Below, piece after piece: positions 31,101 to 46,100 of a stretch of DNA of 64,000 nt (position 1 is the stretch's first letter; the number at the start of each line of letters is the position of its first letter). The stretch is taken from the NCBI GenBank assembly GCA_019358915.1, contig JAHHIM010000017.1, positions 24,107 to 88,106 on the forward strand, written 5' to 3'. Made by a program: the position numbers. The stretch comes from Trichormus sp. ATA11-4-KO1 (GTDB lineage Bacteria; Cyanobacteriota; Cyanobacteriia; Cyanobacteriales; Nostocaceae).

Positions 31101-34100
31101 AGAACATTCTTAATAGTAAAATTCACGATTTACCTCTAGCACTACATTTCAACTATTCTATGAGTAGCATTTGAGTAGCAAAATTAAAAATCAGGACATT
31201 CTGCATCAACTACGTTGGGGTGACAGTAGTACTTGAGTACCGTCTGAACCTCATCACCAATCCACAGTGCAACTTTTTCGGGAGTGACACCAGTCGCGAT
31301 CGCCCATGTAGCGAAGGTGTGTCTTGTGGCATAAGGCTTGAGATAGTAGGGAATTTTCCTGGATTGTGCCAGTTGTCTAACAACACCTGGGTAACGGCAG
31401 AGATGACCATTATTGACGACGGCTGATTGATTCCAGACATTATTTAGAATTGCTCCAGTCATCTCGTTTCCAAGTCTGCTTCTAAAAATCAACTCGCTGG
31501 CAACGGCGTTATCAGGTCTAACCGTCAATAGCAGGTTTTGGACTTTGGAGCCACGAGCAGCCGGAAATATTCGCCTTTTCCCGTTCTTCGTGCCTTTGAG
31601 TATGCCGTGCAAATTTCTGGACTTGGTAATTGATATCCGGCAGCAATCAGCACTAACATCTGCCCAGGTGAGAGCAAAGGCCTCTCCTGGTCGGCAGCCG
31701 GTGAAGAACAAGAATTTGACTAGATCGGTGTAATGACAATGGCGCTCATGAAATTCAAAAGCATTGATAATGATGTCTCTCTGTTCTAGGGTGAAAGCAA
31801 GGTAATCTTCACTATCGGTTGATTTTTGCCTCGGTTTTGGAATTTTCAGCTTATCAAACGGATTTTCAGTAATTAGTTGAGAATCCTTAGCCCATTCACA
31901 ACACTGACTAAATTTTGTTAGTAGATGCCATGCCATGTATTGAGTAGTGTTTTTTGTGAGCCAATCTCTGATACTTGATGCGCGATCTAATTCTTGTGTT
32001 GGGAATCGCTTTATGTATCTAGCAATGGCTGCATAACTGCCCTTGATGGTCGTTTTTTCAACCATAGTTGACTTAAACTCGGTGAATAGCTCCCACAGTT
32101 CACCGAGGGACTTGGTATTAGGTATGTGAACTGTGGGGGCTAGACGTTGAGAACCAAATTTGTAGCGTTCGAGCGTATGGTCGAATTCCCCTAACCCAAT
32201 ATCAGCTTCAATAACATCTCTCCGCGCTTGGACAATTACTCTATTTCTTTTGGTGTCCCTCAGTCCTGTAGATAGATAGAACTGACGAGAAAATCCGCGA
32301 ACTCGAAAGCGTAATGAAAGCTTTCGAGTTCGCGGGTCAACGTTTATCCATTTATCGTCATCCATTGATATCGCTAGTTATTAATGCGGTATATTTTTGT
32401 GTTTAAATTCTTCAGTTAGCCCATTAATGGAATATCGTTTTTTCTCGGTTGCATAGCCGTAAACAACCTCCTTAATTACATCTTGCCGTCTGTCCATGAG
32501 TGCCAAGCAATCATCGCAGACAACAGTAATAGCCCCGTCGCTGGGCAAGCCGCAAACAAGACAGCCCCAACCCGTACCTGGGACAGGTGCTTTCTTTTCT
32601 AGGGTGATGATGTTCCGTACAGTTTCCCCCGTGCAGCCGCAACTACAACACGTCCCCAGGTCAAGGGATTCTTCATCGTAGTCTGGATCGTCTTCATCTT
32701 CACTCCAAACGTAACCGCAATCATCGCACTCCCAAAATCCAAAATAATCGTCATATTGAGTGCGGGATGAATCGCATTTGGGGCATTGTTCACCACTCAT
32801 TCCTCAATCCCTCATCTAAAATCTGCTGCAACCGTTGCTTGCCCTCTTCCCAGCGACGGCCGCCCAATTTCAAAACCTGCTCAATTACATAAGTCTCACC
32901 CTTGACTTCCAGTAATGACTTCACAGCCAAATAAAACGCTTTTTTCTCGGAAGTGGAAGTGGAAGCTTCAACCGGATGATCCGCGCTCGGCTCCTGGACT
33001 AAGTGATTGAGGGAATCAATTAACTCCTGGTGAACTTCCGGCGGGTAAGTTTGGGTGGGTGCAGCGCCGTAGATTTCATAAAGTGCCTGTTCTTGGTTTT
33101 GTGCGCTCAGTGCAATTTCAACTTGTTCTAGTTCCAGGTTCATCACGGCTAGGGCAGCGCGGCGGGCATCTTGAATCATCAGCCGTTTTGAGTCCTGGAC
33201 AAGTTGCACCGAGGACACCAACGCCAAACCGTAGGAAATGCCTCTGGCCACATTGGGAATAGGGGAAAGTGCGGCTAACCATAAGGCTGCTGCACTGGCA
33301 AGAAGACAATTGCACTTTAACCAGCGATCAGCCATGTCAGGACTCCTCCCAAGAAAATGGCGGCGGCGATCGCGATCAGCATCGCGTAATAATCCGGCTC
33401 AGTTAATTTGATAAACGGTCTAATCGCGTCGTCGGTCACCAATGCCAAGACCAGCGCCGCAGATGCAACGATGTAAACAACCCACATCACCCGAAATAAA
33501 GCCGGATGTAACGCCCCTAGCCACGATACACAGCTAGAGGCGATACACCCAGTTAGGAACCATGCCCCCAGGTGTACCGCCTTTGCCATTTAGTATTGCT
33601 CCTTGACTTTGGCTTTTAGTTCATCAATGCGTTTTTGGGCGTTGTTTTCGGCGCGGTCTAACCCGGCTCCCAACTTGGCATACTCAGGGCGCAGCGCGTG
33701 TAGATGTCTGGCTGTGGCTGCATCGGTACGTTTCTTCACTAGTTCGCTGTCAGCTACGCCGCGAATATAGCTGCGATGAGCGGAGTGTACCTGAGCATCG
33801 GCATTTTCAATCTTCTTGAGGGATTTGTAAGCTCGTTTTGATTGAATGGCTCCTTGTGCGGTTTGGGTGGCGAGTGCCTTGAGTGCGTCGGCTTCTTGCT
33901 TGTTAAAATATCGCGGATTATGACTGACGGGTGCTGTCCTCACGGTTTCCCAACTTCCCGCGTTCATGGGATTGATTACAGTTTGGTCAGTTGGGGATAA
34001 CACCCGATTTTTATCTATGGCATGGCCTCCGGTGGCGAGTGATGATTGATTGGTGCTGCTGTTACCGGATTTACCCCGGCTGGTAATACGTGCTAAGACT

Positions 34101-43100: not shown

Positions 43101-46100
43101 CCGCGTGTGGACTTGCGTTTTCGATATGCTCGACTTCTGATTCACGGGAGAATCACAGTAGTTAATCTCGTGGCTACATCCGAATCAGGCTTGAAGTCAG
43201 TCATTGAGCGAGTTAACAGCATTTGAATTATGCTCAGACTAGTTAACTTCTCTACGTAGCAATTATTACTATGTCTCAGTGCTAGAACCGAATTAGTAAT
43301 ATTAGAGACTTCGGTATGGGAAGACGTTTTAACAATTTAGATGCAGCCTTAAAATATCTCCGCGCTCCTGGAGCGACTGCTGACGACTTAGCACCCGATG
43401 CACCGGCGGGGTCTCAGTTGAAAAAATACCAGGACTTTAAGGCTGGTAAGGTGAATATAGATTATCCCAGAGCGGCCAGTTCCCTCCCAGGAAGTTTAGA
43501 CGACGTGGCGCTAAAACCTTTTGCGCTACCATCGGCTGACACTACTGAATATATAGTCGGTGTCTCTACAAGGTCAAAAGGTAACTTAGGAACAGTAGGA
43601 CTGTCGTTAACCACCTTGAACCTCAGCGATACCTTGACTAATGCCGCCAGAGTTATCGGCTTTACTCCAGCTAGGGCAGTTGTTTCTGATATCACTGGGA
43701 CAACCGCTAGCACCAAAACTTCTAAGCTCACGGGCAGACCCTATAAAAGCAAGACGACAGTCACCTATACTTTCCCCTTTGGCTCCAAAGCGACTAATGG
43801 TACTTATTCAGAGGTGAAAGCCGATATTATCGCTGGTGTTGATGCTTCTGCTGGAACCAAAAGTGTCAGTTTCAAGCCGGAAATATTCCGATGATTGCAC
43901 AGCTTTTAGGCACTGAAATTATTACCACTCAGGGAATGAGTCATGATGAAGCCTTACACCTGATCCAACAGCCTGAATGTGCGGATCTTGCTCTTACCCG
44001 TTTTCTGGAGGGGGCTATCAGTTTCTCTGATTACTGCGACATCTTGGAACTGTGCGAGGTAGGAATGGATGGCTATCTAACTAATCTTGAGGAAAATTTG
44101 ACCGCAGTAGGGATAACTGTCTAATGGGTCAGCCAGTTCTAGAATTACTCAACCAAAATAACTGGGTGCAAATTTACGATGAGGCTAGAACGGCTCAAAT
44201 TGCCAGTGATGCAGGGGGCTACTATCCTATTCCCGCTTTTGAAATTCCCTTCCAGTTGGATAAACGCATCTTGGCGGCTAGGTGTATCAGCACAACTGCT
44301 AGGGTTACTTGGCGTTGGGCTGGAAATTTGATTCAAAAAATTTCACCTCCCATTGCTGGCATTAATTCCCCTTTGGTTGAGGCTGGTAGCTATTCCATGA
44401 AAATCAATAGGACTCGGTTAGTAATTTTTAAAAACTATACCAATACTTACCAACTCACTCTTGAAGGTGCTTACTGGTTGAAGGATTTGCGTCTTACTCT
44501 CTGGGAATATCAAGGTGTTGATGGGGATTCTACGGAATCATTGATTACCGACTTAGGAAGTGATTTGGCTCGAATTGAATTAAAAATTGATGGTCTTTAG
44601 ATGACAGTCGATATTAAGGATGGTTTACAAATAATCTTGGCATTGGCGGCTGTAATTACTTTGGTATTTCGCCTTGCACAACTGGAGGCGAATATCCAGA
44701 ATCGAATTACTGAAGTTGACAATAGGATGAAGCTTGCCTTGAGTGAATACAAAGGGCATAAGGAAATGGTTGATTATCAGTTACATGGACTGAATGAAAA
44801 AATTGACCATAAGTTCAAAAGGCTTCACGATGCACAAAAAGAAATTCAAGATTTTTTAGCTAAAACTACAAGTTTTATTAAACGGGAAGGATCATGAATC
44901 AACAAACTTTAGACCGTATTACTACTATTTTGGGCTTAATCGCCGGCGGTTCTGCCCTTTTGGGTGGCTCTGGGGTGATTGGTGAGCCGTTGGCAGGTGC
45001 TATTGGTGGCGTGGCCGCGGCGCTGCTTGGCTACTTCGTGCAGCGTCCAAGCCGCACCGAAATTAAATCTGGGGATTCACTCTAGTAATTTATAAAATTT
45101 GCATCGTAGCAACTTCCCCTATAATGCCTTGTACAAGGCAATAGGGGATTTTTTTATGAGAGGCGGCGGAAGGACAGCGACGACATGGACGGGTAGCGCT
45201 TGGCGACACAAAGAAACTAAGGCGATACGCATTCCCGCAGTATTTGCGGATGAAATCATGGCTTATGCCAAAGCACTAGATAACGGGAACAGCCATGTAC
45301 AAGGCAATACACGCGATGAGATATTAAAGGCGATCGCGGCTTACATTGAATTCAAAAAAGCCAGCCGTCATCCCAACCAGTACGGAAAGGAACTCGACAC
45401 CAACACTAGAGCTTGGGATGAACTCAGGAAGTTTCAAAAGCTGGTGCAGGAGCGTCCCGAAATTTTGGGACTACCTGAGTAGAATTTGAGTAGCGCGATC
45501 GCGTGGTGCGATCGCGAAACGCTGGGACAAAACTAGCAGTTTTGAGTAGCGCTTAAGTAGCAAAAGTCTATATAGAAGCTGAAATTATTGATTTGACGTT
45601 GCTTTTGCATATTTAATAGTAAAATTCACGATTTACCTCTAGCACTACATTTCAACTATTCTATGAGTAGCATTTGAGTAGCAAAATTAAAAATCAGGAC
45701 ATTCTGCATCAACGTAGCTTGGTTCTTGATTTAGGGGCACAGGTAATTCCAATTGATGGAAAAACACTTAAGGGTTTTTATGACCGTAACCAAGAACAAT
45801 CAGCATTACATGTGGTAAGCGCATGGGCTAGTAAACATCGGTTATTTTTAGGTCAATTGAAAATCAACTTCATTGGGTTTTAGATGTCACCTTTAAGGTG
45901 TTTTACAAAATTTTATGGATGCTTCCGAGTTATTAGAAACAATCACACTCCTCATTGACCAGGCTGAGCAAGGAGAAATAGATCCTTGGGATGTCCAGGT
46001 AATTGAGGTGATTGACCGTTACCTAGAACTAATGGTACCAGAGGCAACAGCCAGAGGCTATGAAGCTGATTTGTCTCAATCTGGACAGGCTTTTTTGTCA

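Follow-up and report, generated by a model that had tools for sequence, protein, structure and literature searches.

Satellites of the P4 and PICI kind combine a small size, an integrase at one edge and a primase-helicase, and they lack capsid, portal and terminase genes. The element analysed here resembles them in its size class (10-18 kb), its outward-reading tyrosine integrase at the edge, its divergent control region, its P4/VapE-type primase-helicase, the integrated and plasmid states of its family, and the absence of capsid, portal and terminase genes. It differs in that its family carries a 6-7-kb operon for a collagen fibre and a predicted jelly-roll-like protein, with endolysins in relatives, and in that it has neither capsid-size or packaging-redirection genes nor a known helper. 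Satellites of matching architecture are described, at least in outline, in PMC13376191.

Small temperate tailless membrane-containing dsDNA viruses, namely Corticoviridae (PM2-like), Sphaerolipoviridae and Simuloviridae, share with the family circular dsDNA of 10-19 kb, a temperate life in integrated or episomal form, jelly-roll structural proteins, spikes, small membrane proteins and lysis genes. Members of the Simuloviridae are described as having circular genomes of 16-19 kb, a pair of capsid proteins of the single-jelly-roll type, and proviruses that are episomal. The defining features of these groups are major capsid proteins with one or two jelly rolls and an FtsK/HerA-type packaging ATPase, whereas the element has no Walker A motif in its ORFs of at least 80 aa, and the small protein p158 alone is predicted to be jelly-roll-like.

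Two cyanobacterial systems are also comparable. The heterocyst nifD element, with its recombinase XisA, has a parallel in a family member that sits in nifD with a tyrosine recombinase (genome G062), and interruption elements have been proposed to be virus or phage remnants, a hypothesis recorded by Hilton et al. 2016 (PMC4874684). The present element, in contrast, splits no gene and restores the start of an amidohydrolase. CyRepA plasmids (pSYSA, pCC5.2) share a DUF3854 (Toprim-related) N-terminal domain with the element's replication protein, and plasmid forms occur in the family. CyRepA joins DUF3854 to a DEXDc helicase (PMC10079941), whereas rep892 couples DUF3854 to a VapE-like domain; such plasmids are not known from that account to carry this late operon.

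Borders, insertion site and replication module

The element (about 14.5-14.6 kb) lies in the window, the whole 64-kb stretch of DNA that was analysed, and is integrated site-specifically in single copy (Table 1). Its borders are direct repeats identical at 101 of 101 positions (contig coordinates C17:55216-55316 = 69719-69819), set within a wider repeat of 106 nt at 98% identity (31105-31210 / 45608-45713) found by a repeat search of the window. Alignment and whole-genome blastn bear out this repeat, already reported in the preliminary description, and place it only twice in the 5.97-Mb assembly; a 101-bp contig has twofold depth in one sequencing run. The repeats enclose 22 ORFs, not the 21 genes first counted.

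Table 1. Features of the element and its target gene, with window positions and supporting evidence
Feature	Position	Strand	Evidence
Target gene, amidohydrolase (TRZ/ATZ / deaminase-like)	29729..31126	-	PF01979 9.1e-55; orthologue alignment
attL, left copy of 101-bp repeat	31110..31210	.	Repeat search, alignment, blastn, orthologue alignment
Tyrosine integrase, 393 aa, N-terminal Arm-DNA-binding domain	31184..32365	-	PF00589 4.3e-9
zn139, zinc-ribbon protein	32381..32800	-	Weak Zn_Ribbon_TF 2.1e-3; relatives in L126, L127
Leftward block p181 - tm90 - p171 - p106	32790..34438	-	Hydropathy; conservation in relatives
xis163, HTH protein	34353..34844	-	phrog_66 1.7e-3, MerR_1 3.2e-3, HTH_23 2.4e-3
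Divergent control region: p188(-), p116(+), kgk140(-)	34783..36326	.	KGK PF08872 3.3e-10 (kgk140)
rep892, primase-helicase	36423..39101	+	PF05272 (VapE-like) 5.8e-76; PF12965 (DUF3854) 3.7e-33
Iteron cluster in rep892 linker-coding region	38426..38690	.	ATCTGGATCA 4x on +, 2x on -, plus near-copies
zn61, small zinc-ribbon protein	39098..39283	+	Weak Zn_ribbon matches
p110, first gene of conserved late module	39363..39695	+	Relatives across loci
cys191, Cys-rich protein, variable slot of module	39695..40270	+	Relatives in L044, L045 only
col709, fibre-like protein	40270..42399	+	PF01391 (Collagen) 5.2e-8; PF11839 (Alanine_zipper) 3.1e-5; tail-fibre PHROGs 7e-8
p274, most conserved family marker	42402..43226	+	Homologue searches, AlphaFold2 model
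p192	43316..43894	+	Alignment: N- and C-termini conserved, middle variable
p77, small acidic protein, always after p192 slot	43891..44124	+	Order in relatives
p158, predicted jelly-roll-like beta sandwich (residues 14-129) + C-terminal helix	44124..44600	+	AlphaFold2 pLDDT 80.0
tm98 and tm63, small hydrophobic proteins	44601..45085	+	Hydropathy
p127, last gene	45099..45482	+	Relatives in other loci
attR, right copy of 101-bp repeat	45613..45713	.	Repeat search, alignment, blastn

The left repeat joins roughly 22 bp from the host (the 5′ end of the amidohydrolase) to about 79 bp of element-type sequence, which holds GAGTAGCA twice and the integrase stop; the right repeat carries a decoy copy of the amidohydrolase start. 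The site had been called intergenic, which needs qualifying, as the repeat also takes in the 5′-most 17 nt of the amidohydrolase ORF, with its GTG start, together with the last eight codons and stop of the integrase. The amidohydrolase, which matches the NCBIfam model for 8-oxoguanine deaminase at 1e-79, below that model's cut-off, lies 57 nt downstream of the integrase in the same orientation, and its reading frame is intact. The closest relative, G011 (same genus, 96% identity), is without the element, and its likeness to the left flank ends at window position 31132 and continues into DNA on another contig of the present assembly; in G004, of another genus, the corresponding site at the amidohydrolase is occupied by a related integrase. 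The perfect repeats point to a recent event. Collinearity with relatives is lost on the right flank, so a single clean insertion does not account for the whole history of the site.

Pfam (also PF12167, Arm-DNA-bind_2, 5.6e-7), PHROGs (phrog_1, 1.3e-38) and the coordinates uphold the earlier description of an Arm-domain tyrosine integrase ending inside the repeat; its counterparts in related loci L041 and L036 are 56-58% identical. With integrase, replicon and attachment repeats all supported, the locus is an integrative element, as proposed. There is no basis for calling it a founding copy: it is an ordinary single-copy member with three decayed relatives elsewhere in the genome. Hydrophobic segments occur in three of the four proteins of the leftward block, none of which has a family match (Pfam, PHROGs, NCBIfam, defence and toxin searches); the block is kept in L108 (49-81% identity) and L127 (35-52%) and probably represents lysogeny-side or accessory genes. 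An excisionase-like protein had been noted, and matches do exist, but they are weak; xis163, with a 73% identical relative in L108, is a tentative candidate for a MerR-like excisionase or regulator. In the control region, p116 has relatives in L032, L036, L038 and L050.

The primase-helicase rep892 has a DUF3854/Toprim-like N-terminal part and a VapE-like helicase part; it matches phrog_36873 (DNA helicase) at 1.3e-80 and is 80% identical to its relative in L041. The label of cyanobacterial plasmid Rep type therefore fits the DUF3854 half and not the helicase half, which is VapE-like rather than the DEXDc of CyRepA. All six exact matches of ATCTGGATCA in the 64 kb fall in a 265-bp part of the rep gene, where chance would give 0.14 in the 64 kb, and none of 100 shuffles reached six; repeats and inverted repeats were found in the same region. 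This cluster inside the gene is a likely candidate for the replication origin, judged from its sequence. The start of zn61, with relatives in L034, L036 and L041 (46-72%), overlaps the rep892 stop.

A shared late operon in different backbones

Downstream lies a tightly coupled rightward operon of p110, cys191, col709, p274, p192, p77, p158, tm98, tm63 and p127, in which Pfam matches confirm the collagen/alanine-zipper fibre protein reported before. In col709, N-terminal hydrophobic segments are combined with an Ala-zipper coiled coil and a collagen repeat, and the C-terminal domain (about 300 aa) is conserved at 33-62% identity across loci; the C-terminal helix of cys191 resembles the col709 N-terminus. 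No family was found for p110 in Pfam, PHROGs or NCBIfam. Each of the 11 orthologues inspected retains the motif (I/L)(D/N)P(D/N)(D/N/A)Y at its C-terminal end. Relatives of p127 align from its residue 20, so its true start is probably near 45156.

The p274 protein, remodelled with AlphaFold2 at pLDDT 86.0 (90.1 in the preliminary description), is predicted to have an N-terminal helical bundle and an alpha/beta domain. Comparison with PDB folds again matched the N-terminal helices only (best VIA Z 5.8) and gave no known fold or family, and BFVD held no match with E<=1e-3; p192 has no sequence match in the PDB. Neither p274 nor p192 is a jelly roll by the present model or by those of the preliminary description. 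p158 models as a jelly-roll-like sandwich, with VIA Z scores of 8.5 to PirA, 8.1 to the C-domain of STIV A223 and 7.7-7.8 to picorna-like capsid proteins, values of about 8 being a level at which the program itself speaks of a common arrangement. By position only, tm98 and tm63 are holin-like.

The late operon is conserved, translationally coupled and common to hundreds of relatives. The order col709-p274-(p192-p77)-p158, previously seen in five of five loci, holds in all 20 fetched, with positional analogues of p192 and p77 present in relatives. Homologues of p274, at first found in 25 of 60 genera, occur in 40 of 68 genera and 123 of 301 genomes of Nostocaceae in a different sample, which supports the large family proposed around this block. 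Its naming after Nostocaceae was too narrow, as a profile search found p274 in 42 of 401 genomes of a phylum sample, in at least 12 other families. Nor is it a multi-copy element with identical copies per genome: what is shared is a late module that recombines between different backbones, as in G042, where 7,181 bp of late module are 99.986% identical in two backbones with about 79% identity upstream. Such near-identical modules in different backbones, together with the patchy distribution, point to ongoing horizontal spread.

As first reported, no terminase, portal, capsid or conjugation family was found among the 22 proteins (Pfam, PHROGs, E<=0.01). Searches of the element for a packaging ATPase and for defence or toxin families also came back empty, and the ORFs of at least 80 aa in relatives L114 and L051 likewise have no Walker A motif. 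None of the five core proteins had a tblastn match in 50,697 phage records, a result that includes p110, p192, p274 and the col709 C-domain, and two pattern sets found no relative in IMG/VR.

Free forms, lysis genes and competing readings

The preliminary description did not include the iteron cluster, the relatives that are circular or interrupt nifD, or the genes for lysis and receptor binding that relatives carry. Phage-type endolysins of three unrelated kinds occupy the same operon region in at least seven of 35 loci scanned: an M15 peptidase (L033), Amidase_3/phrog_435 (L031, L038, L046, L105) and phrog_3000/33083 (L125, L126). In L105 some 350 nt separate the tm98 relative from the endolysin downstream of it, and in L031 and L038 a small integrase and an endolysin are neighbours of the p127 relative; the present copy has no endolysin recognised by Pfam or PHROGs. 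Operons of relatives also encode fibre or receptor-binding types, including collagen with GDSL (L042; phrog_38670, 7.9e-65), Laminin_G_3 (L033), a phage tail repeat (L125; PF12789, 2.3e-31) and F5/8 type C (L126).

These genes bear on the satellite reading, under which the element integrates and replicates by itself, is packaged in the capsids of a helper and uses the late operon to redirect helper assembly or host range. The architecture set out above, from size and edge integrase to the absent capsid, portal and terminase, agrees with it. Satellites as described, however, have no structural or lysis genes, and here there is a 6-7-kb fibre and jelly-roll-like operon in a family with endolysins; none of the genes looks like a known capsid-redirecting or small-terminase gene (Pfam, PHROGs), no helper candidate was identified, and the core proteins, having no counterpart in the phage records, give no sign of mimicking helper parts. 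We regard this reading as distinctly unlikely.

Free forms are indicated by two circular metagenome relatives (10.4 and 12.1 kb), with terminal overlaps in two of 39 loci tested (L114, 10,521 bp; L121, 12,221 bp). By our own count, contigs of 13.0-18.3 kb hold 18 of the 120 p274 homologues listed. Plasmids CP019637.1 and CP019638.1 carry p274, and the late module also occurs on a plasmid of 37 kb that encodes ParB and a restriction-modification system, which shows that genomes larger than virus size can carry it too. Replication genes vary, with a DnaB-type helicase in L033 and L050 and a P4-family primase in L129.

A non-viral plasmid that integrates through its tyrosine recombinase, with an operon that encodes not a virion but something that benefits the host or serves competition (such as an adhesin or surface fibre, or a bacteriocin of the fibre type set free by lysis), would suit the relatives annotated as plasmids with ParA/ParB and the short recombinases (190-230 aa) of several relatives that look like multimer resolvases. 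It also accords with the null searches for capsid and packaging genes and for matches in IMG/VR and phage records, and with the chromosomal depth of the element (contig depth 1062.9 against 1066.7 and 1055.2 for the flanks, one run). DUF3854 Rep proteins are proven cyanobacterial plasmid replicases (PMC10079941). Against this stand the share of the operon, which by ORF coordinates takes up over half of the 10.4-kb circle L114; its standing, unusual for cargo, as the only part that stays the same when genes for replication and integration are exchanged; the three endolysin types and phage-type receptor-binding domains attached to it; and the lack of defence or toxin families in the searches. 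This account is rather unlikely.

In G062 the family member interrupts nifD as an insert of 19.75 kb, with codons 1-297 on one side and 278-434 on the other. Next to the nifD 5′ part lies an XisA-like tyrosine recombinase of 468 aa, which has only marginal likeness to the element's integrase (E 0.045). This relative, the decayed copies in the present genome, a fused col-p274 gene in G149, and the chromosomal depth with no excision joint or over-replication in the one available sequencing run would fit an element that has been domesticated or is decaying, excised at most by its recombinase like heterocyst interruption elements and otherwise inherited vertically. All 22 ORFs are open, however, and wherever relatives exist for comparison the ORFs have their full length; the perfect repeats, the uninterrupted amidohydrolase frame, and the near-identical modules and patchy distribution also argue against it. 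This reading is very unlikely.

The best reading, to which we give an even chance, is that the element is an intact provirus belonging to a family, so far undescribed, of small temperate viruses that infect filamentous and related cyanobacteria. Counting against it are the negative searches for capsid, portal, terminase and packaging ATPase and for matches in BFVD, PDB folds, phage records and IMG/VR, the lack of a recognised endolysin in this copy, the depth equal to that of the flanks, the 37-kb plasmid, the common level of the p158 jelly-roll match and the non-collinear right flank. After induction, a circle would be released by recombination of attL with attR through the integrase, perhaps aided by xis163, and rep892 would replicate this circle from the iterons. 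The late operon would build the particle from a trimeric collagen/coiled-coil fibre (col709), p274, p192, the putative jelly-roll protein p158 and small membrane proteins, and the genome would be taken in by a route other than a terminase-type motor. Exit would be by lysis, with endolysins beside the operon in relatives and only the two holin-like membrane proteins here. Replication, integration and lysis modules would be exchanged between relatives, like phage mosaics, and because the family combines phage-like fibre and cell-lysis genes with no recognisable capsid genes, its members may be viruses of a kind not yet known.

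Distribution and exchange of the late module

The late operon of the element encodes, in order, p110, cys191, the fibre-like col709, p274, p192, p77, p158, tm98, tm63, and p127, and relatives of the 274-aa protein p274 occur in 123 of 301 genomes and 40 of 68 genera of the host family, Nostocaceae. A profile detected p274 in 42 of 401 genomes from across the phylum, among them 11 of 25 in a second family, 3 of 20 in a third, and one each in nine more families, but in none of 225 genomes of twelve further families or 29 of another. A search of 5.8 billion proteins returned 357 relatives; among the 120 listed, those bearing a name are all "hypothetical", none has a Pfam domain, and 18 lie on contigs of 13.0-18.3 kb. 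Scanning genome contigs with the single p274 protein gave four loci. Full-text literature searches returned no paper on the element family, its proteins, or named homologues.

The preliminary description held that the fibre gene and those behind it keep their order in other genera, and a constant order (p110, a variable slot, a long fibre-like protein of 637-918 aa, p274, the p192 slot, the p77 slot, and p158) recurred in all 20 loci fetched. A deeper branch carries a "long p274" of 516-533 aa, which has the C-terminal domain alone in common. The surrounding backbones vary: replicases of the type of rep892, the primase-helicase of the element, were found in four loci (L032, L041, L045, and L105), DnaB-type helicases in two (L033 and L050), and a P4-family primase in one (L129), and the integrases of relatives are long, short (190-230 aa), or absent.

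Several identical copies per genome had also been reported, which holds for the late module but not for the backbones around it. In one genome (G042), the late modules of two elements (L035 and L036) agree at 99.986% over 7,181 bp, against ∼79% for the replication and control regions; in another (G010; L032 and L033), ∼7.5 kb are common at 96% and the replication genes, including the replicases, differ. Because near-identical modules sit in different backbones, the "identical copies" are best read as one module recombining between co-resident backbones, and both pairs look like products of recent module exchange or gene conversion. Elsewhere, an 826-aa ORF fuses the C-terminal domain of col709 (residues 411-664) in frame to residues 130-271 of p274 and derives from these neighbouring genes by deletion.

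Integration site, replicon, and state of the Trichormus copy

Pairwise alignment and blastn against the 5.97-Mb assembly bore out the 101-bp direct repeat, which is identical at 101 of 101 positions and occurs at two places only in the assembly. Between its copies 22 ORFs were counted, rather than the 21 genes first given. ARAGORN found no tRNA in the window, in keeping with the earlier statement that the attachment site is not a tRNA, but the site is not purely intergenic, as the left repeat includes the integrase stop and the GTG start of an amidohydrolase gene, and its right copy consequently bears a decoy gene start (see the table). The amidohydrolase ORF is intact (465 aa), and the element lacks the pairing of a split functional gene with a Xis-type recombinase that marks heterocyst interruption elements. 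The amidohydrolase gene now lies closely downstream of the co-oriented integrase gene and has lost its native upstream region through integration, so its expression may depend on promoters of the element.

Positions of features in the window and in related sequences
Feature	Sequence	Position	Match or remark
Left repeat, attL	window	31110-31210	
Amidohydrolase GTG start and first 17 nt, within attL	window	31110-31126	
Gap between integrase and amidohydrolase genes	window	31127-31183	57 nt
Integrase stop and last 8 codons, within attL	window	31184-31210	
Right repeat, attR	window	45613-45713	
Longer pair reported by repeat search	window	31105-31210 / 45608-45713	106 nt, 98%
Cluster of ATCTGGATCA	window	38426-38690	within rep892
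p110 end	window	39650-39695	terminal motif
Similar helices of cys191 and col709	window	40180-40330	
Palindrome	window	40214-40251	cys191/col709 junction
69-aa ORF just right of attR	window	45674-45883	phrog_16731, 8.9e-10
Decayed relative	C25, own genome	9531-9970	
Decayed relative	C65, own genome	59660-60049	
Decayed relative	C36, own genome	277508-277983	
Decayed relative	C3, own genome	27185-27277	
CRISPR array	C73, own genome (G000)	195333-196071	11 repeats
Spacer match	plasmid pHT582-2	9808-9831	
Fused col709-p274 ORF	L128 (G149:C14)	4290-6770	
Coq4-family gene	L051 (CP019638.1)	1894-2496	PF05019, 1.4e-27
nifD in three pieces	G062:C2 (L048, L129, L130)	3174399-3253656	
M15 peptidase	L033		phrog_894, 8.8e-25
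Amidase_3/phrog_435 endolysin	L031, L038, L046, L105		6e-49 to 1e-61
phrog_3000/33083 endolysin	L125, L126		
Collagen-GDSL protein, receptor-binding type	L042		tail-fibre PHROG, 7.9e-65
ConA-like lectin, receptor-binding type	L033		
Phage-tail-repeat protein, receptor-binding type	L125		2.3e-31
Discoidin-domain protein, receptor-binding type	L126		
Second collagen protein, receptor-binding type	L108		

Host-type sequence makes up no more than the initial ∼22 bp of the repeat, and most relatives have another native sequence upstream of the amidohydrolase start. The other ∼79 bp, which contain GAGTAGCA twice, are of element type and recur beside integrase 3′ ends in G004, a genome of another genus, and in three decayed copies within the Trichormus genome; in G003 such sequence occurs without an integrase. 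A same-genus genome, G011 (96% identity), lacks the element, and its similarity ends at window position 31132, beyond which it continues into DNA that is placed on contig C25 in the Trichormus genome. In G004 a related integrase (67% nucleotide identity) occupies the same amidohydrolase site, which, together with the recurrence of element-type sequence elsewhere, indicates that this site is a recurrent target. The present copy was probably inserted into a site already scarred by an earlier relative, and such a scar would account for the duplication of the 79-bp element-type sequence.

Decayed relatives of the element were noted on four contigs of the Trichormus genome. Those on C25, C65, and C36 retain C-terminal integrase fragments (58-69% identity) and att-like sequence, adjoining a p127 fragment on C65 and a tm63 fragment on C36, and the one on C3 is a short fragment of the p127 region only. 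The C25 copy adjoins DNA that neighbours the amidohydrolase in G011.

The right flank begins with an ISAs1-like transposase fragment, followed by scpA. An empty site, with the amidohydrolase gene next to scpA, was sought in relatives and seen in none of the 19 scpA loci examined, so what now lies to the right was not the original neighbour. The 69-aa ORF just right of attR resembles, by eye, a fragment of an ISAs1-type transposase, and such a fragment may account for a right flank that is not collinear with relatives.

The claim of a tyrosine integrase at the edge was upheld (PF00589 4.3e-9; Arm-DNA-bind_2, PF12167, 5.6e-7; phrog_1 1.3e-38). The gene described as excisionase-like encodes a candidate excisionase with HTH matches at E ∼2e-3. 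The 892-aa primase-helicase was likewise recovered, with matches to VapE-like (5.8e-76), DUF3854 (3.7e-33), and phrog helicase (1.3e-80) families; its assignment to the cyanobacterial plasmid Rep type is right for the DUF3854 domain but not for the helicase part, which is VapE-like and has no DEXDc match. The motif ATCTGGATCA has six exact copies in the 64-kb window, two of them on the strand opposite to the remaining four, all within a low-complexity, linker-coding part of rep892 and surrounded by near-copies and inverted repeats. The expectation is 0.14 copies, and six were reached in 0 of 100 shuffles. This iteron cluster is probably an origin within its initiator gene, an arrangement for which the lambda O gene offers a comparison. 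CyRepA is described as an N-terminal DUF3854 domain joined to a C-terminal DEXDc helicase (PMC10079941), and with that plasmid replicon rep892 has only the DUF3854 domain in common. A foreign ORF in a fern plastome has its best matches among cyanobacterial DUF3854 and P4-primase proteins (PMC6220310), so replicases of these types may have reached organelles. Confidence is high that the insert is an integrative element which entered site-specifically and carries a replicon of its own.

All 22 ORFs are open, those with relatives are full-length against them, and the element is single-copy in its genome. In one sequencing run, possibly of the source sample, contig depth was 1062.9 for the element, 1066.7 and 1055.2 for its flanks, and 2201.4 for the 101-bp repeat. 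The contigs of this run, in which rare events are invisible, gave no joints and a flat depth, and thus no sign of excision or over-replication. That the element is domesticated or decaying is judged very improbable.

Late-operon proteins and the nature of the element

Pfam and PHROGs confirmed col709 as a 709-aa collagen/alanine-zipper protein and, at E≤0.01, showed no terminase, portal, capsid, or conjugation family among the 22 proteins, as had been stated. Hallmarks of tailed phages (Caudoviricetes), namely a terminase large subunit, a portal, and an HK97-fold capsid, gave no match among these proteins in the same searches, and the fold searches with the p274 and p158 models returned nothing of the kind. 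NCBIfam and PADLOC added no family; PADLOC gave one marginal HTH match among the 22 proteins, and a defence-island reading was dropped. Tailless viruses of the Varidnaviria type combine a jelly-roll capsid with an FtsK/HerA packaging ATPase, whereas no packaging ATPase with Walker A/B motifs was found in the element: the motif [AG]x4GK[ST] is absent from all ORFs of at least 80 aa in the element, in L114 (a circular metagenome contig), and in the plasmid L051, and the only ATPase family in the element is the VapE domain of rep892.

The p158 model (pLDDT 80.0) is a sandwich of seven to eight strands with a C-terminal helix. It matches PirA best (Z 8.5, rmsd 2.3, 91 aligned). Next come A223, the turret protein of STIV, over its C-terminal domain (Z 8.1, rmsd 2.5, 83 aligned), and capsid proteins of picorna-like type (Z 7.7-7.8), and carbohydrate-binding modules are not far below at Z 6-7. 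In BFVD it had three matches at E≤1e-3, with TM 0.30-0.34, all generic weak sandwiches. The predicted structure is thus jelly-roll-like, short of a proven capsid protein.

The p274 model (pLDDT 86.0, pTM 0.60) is a helical bundle (9-88) followed by an alpha/beta domain (97-271), not a beta barrel. It had no match in BFVD at E≤1e-3 and no convincing one among 48,161 PDB chains, the best (Z 5.8) lying on the N-terminal helices. A 2H phosphoesterase/LigT-like reading of the C-terminal domain (Z 4.2-4.8) was considered but rejected because the conserved histidines of the two H-x-T/S motifs are missing, with no invariant or near-invariant His in 37 sequences. Profile searches of PDB sequences gave a single match for p274, at E 0.36, and none for p192 or p158. 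In the ESM Atlas the clusters nearest to p274 are tail-terminator families at 0.86, which is below the tool's trust level and counts as a lead only, and p192, a protein with conserved ends and a variable middle, had no usable cluster.

Fibre proteins carry a hydrophobic segment in the N-terminal third (nine of ten homologues checked); these segments are rich in Ala and Leu, so insertion into a membrane is only possible. A helix at the C-terminus of cys191 (CNDVFNEISSIRALV) is similar to one at the N-terminus of col709 (CNEIMAEISALRADI), with a palindrome at the junction, and the likeness may reflect a common anchoring helix or a recombination point at which the variable slot is swapped. p110 shares a conserved terminal (I/L)(D/N)P(D/N)(D/N/A)Y motif with 11 orthologues; the tail of col709 is acidic and LDPDD-like, and the DNA word that col709 has in common with p110 is direct repeat D2.

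An endolysin-type gene closes the operon or sits next to it in at least 7 of 35 related loci whose neighbouring ORFs were scanned, and the genes are of three unrelated kinds (table); in L105 the amidase gene is ∼350 nt downstream of the tm98 relative. These operons also include proteins of receptor-binding type (table). No endolysin was recognised in the present copy. Of 39 fetched genome and metagenome contigs tested, two overlap at their ends, by 123 and 127 bp, and are circles of 10.5 kb (L114) and 12.2 kb (L121); L114 has hardly any recognisable family besides the collagen repeat.

A temperate virus with unrecognised virion proteins fits these observations best, owing to the constant, structural-looking operon beside swapped replication, integration, and lysis modules, the three kinds of endolysin and the phage-type receptor-binding domains, and the small circular genomes in which the operon takes up more than half of the DNA. 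Counted against it are the missing capsid, portal, terminase, and ATPase families, the lack of a recognised endolysin here, the lack of any relative in IMG/VR (in scans using a single protein and an alignment), and the lack of any tblastn match of the five core proteins in 50,697 phage records. The chances that the element is such a virus are judged about even. Gene order (a long helical protein, one of ∼270 aa, receptor-binding proteins, holin and lysin) had prompted a tape-measure or siphovirus tail-tip reading of col709-p274, which was set aside as even the complete 10.4-kb circle L114 has no tube, capsid, or terminase gene. CRISPR evidence was also set aside as too weak, since nine candidate arrays of the Trichormus genome, compared with the fetched elements, gave a single match, in which 24 consecutive nt of a 35-nt spacer recur in plasmid pHT582-2, where a 1664-aa gene has its 3′ end, outside the late module.

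The occurrence of p274 on two deposited plasmids from one Nostocales strain bears on a second explanation, in which the element is an integrative plasmid rather than a virus and its operon is of a fibre or bacteriocin-like kind. The complete late module is carried by the 37-kb plasmid, which also counts against a virus; the 15.6-kb plasmid (L051) encodes ParA/ParB and an integrase and has, of the late module, only the fibre and p274 genes. This explanation is considered unlikely. In L051 a Coq4-family gene follows p274 and replaces p192, p77, and p158. A helper-dependent satellite is a third explanation: the element has an integrase and its own primase/replicase within 7-20 kb, as P4-like and PICI satellites do, but the family bears fibre, jelly-roll, and endolysin genes, whereas satellites lack virion structural and lysis genes, and this origin is thought distinctly improbable.

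A relative within nifD and the meaning of the family

The nifD gene of G062 is broken into three parts (residues 1-297, 278-434, and 432-466). The 19.75 kb between the first two contain the module from p110 to p158, a P4-family primase, and, adjoining the 5′ part of nifD, a XisA-like tyrosine recombinase of 468 aa; the last two are kept apart by a further insert of ∼58 kb. This relative alone combines a split gene with a Xis-type recombinase, and its gene content ties one nif interruption element to the p274 family. Interruption elements have been hypothesised to be what is left of viruses or phages, as recorded in Hilton et al. 2016 (PMC4874684).

A wider proposal sees in the p274 module the virion genes of bacterial dsDNA viruses that would form a new lineage, with circular genomes of 10-20 kb, integrating or plasmid-like, and would infect multicellular and related cyanobacteria. 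The particle would consist of p274 and p192, both without a recognised fold, a jelly-roll protein of small size, and a collagen fibre anchored in the membrane, without an HK97 or double-jelly-roll capsid or a packaging ATPase, and the lineage would be the source of at least some nif-interrupting elements excised in heterocysts. Taken as a whole, this proposal is tentative and rather doubtful.

Whichever explanation applies, p274 is present in about two in five of the sampled Nostocaceae genomes, a group with major nitrogen fixers, symbionts, and bloom formers among its members, and yet the family is annotated only as "hypothetical protein", and no member turned up in the phage and viral-contig collections searched. 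Should the elements be plasmids, they would be a dominant, unstudied vehicle of gene exchange, and the integrase/att pair and the compact replicon of rep892 and iterons could be used as genetic tools for Nostocales. Should they be viruses, their virion would be an additional type, invisible to current hallmark-gene detectors, temperate viruses of filamentous cyanobacteria would be badly under-counted, and the long-debated elements that interrupt nif genes would have a concrete, testable origin.
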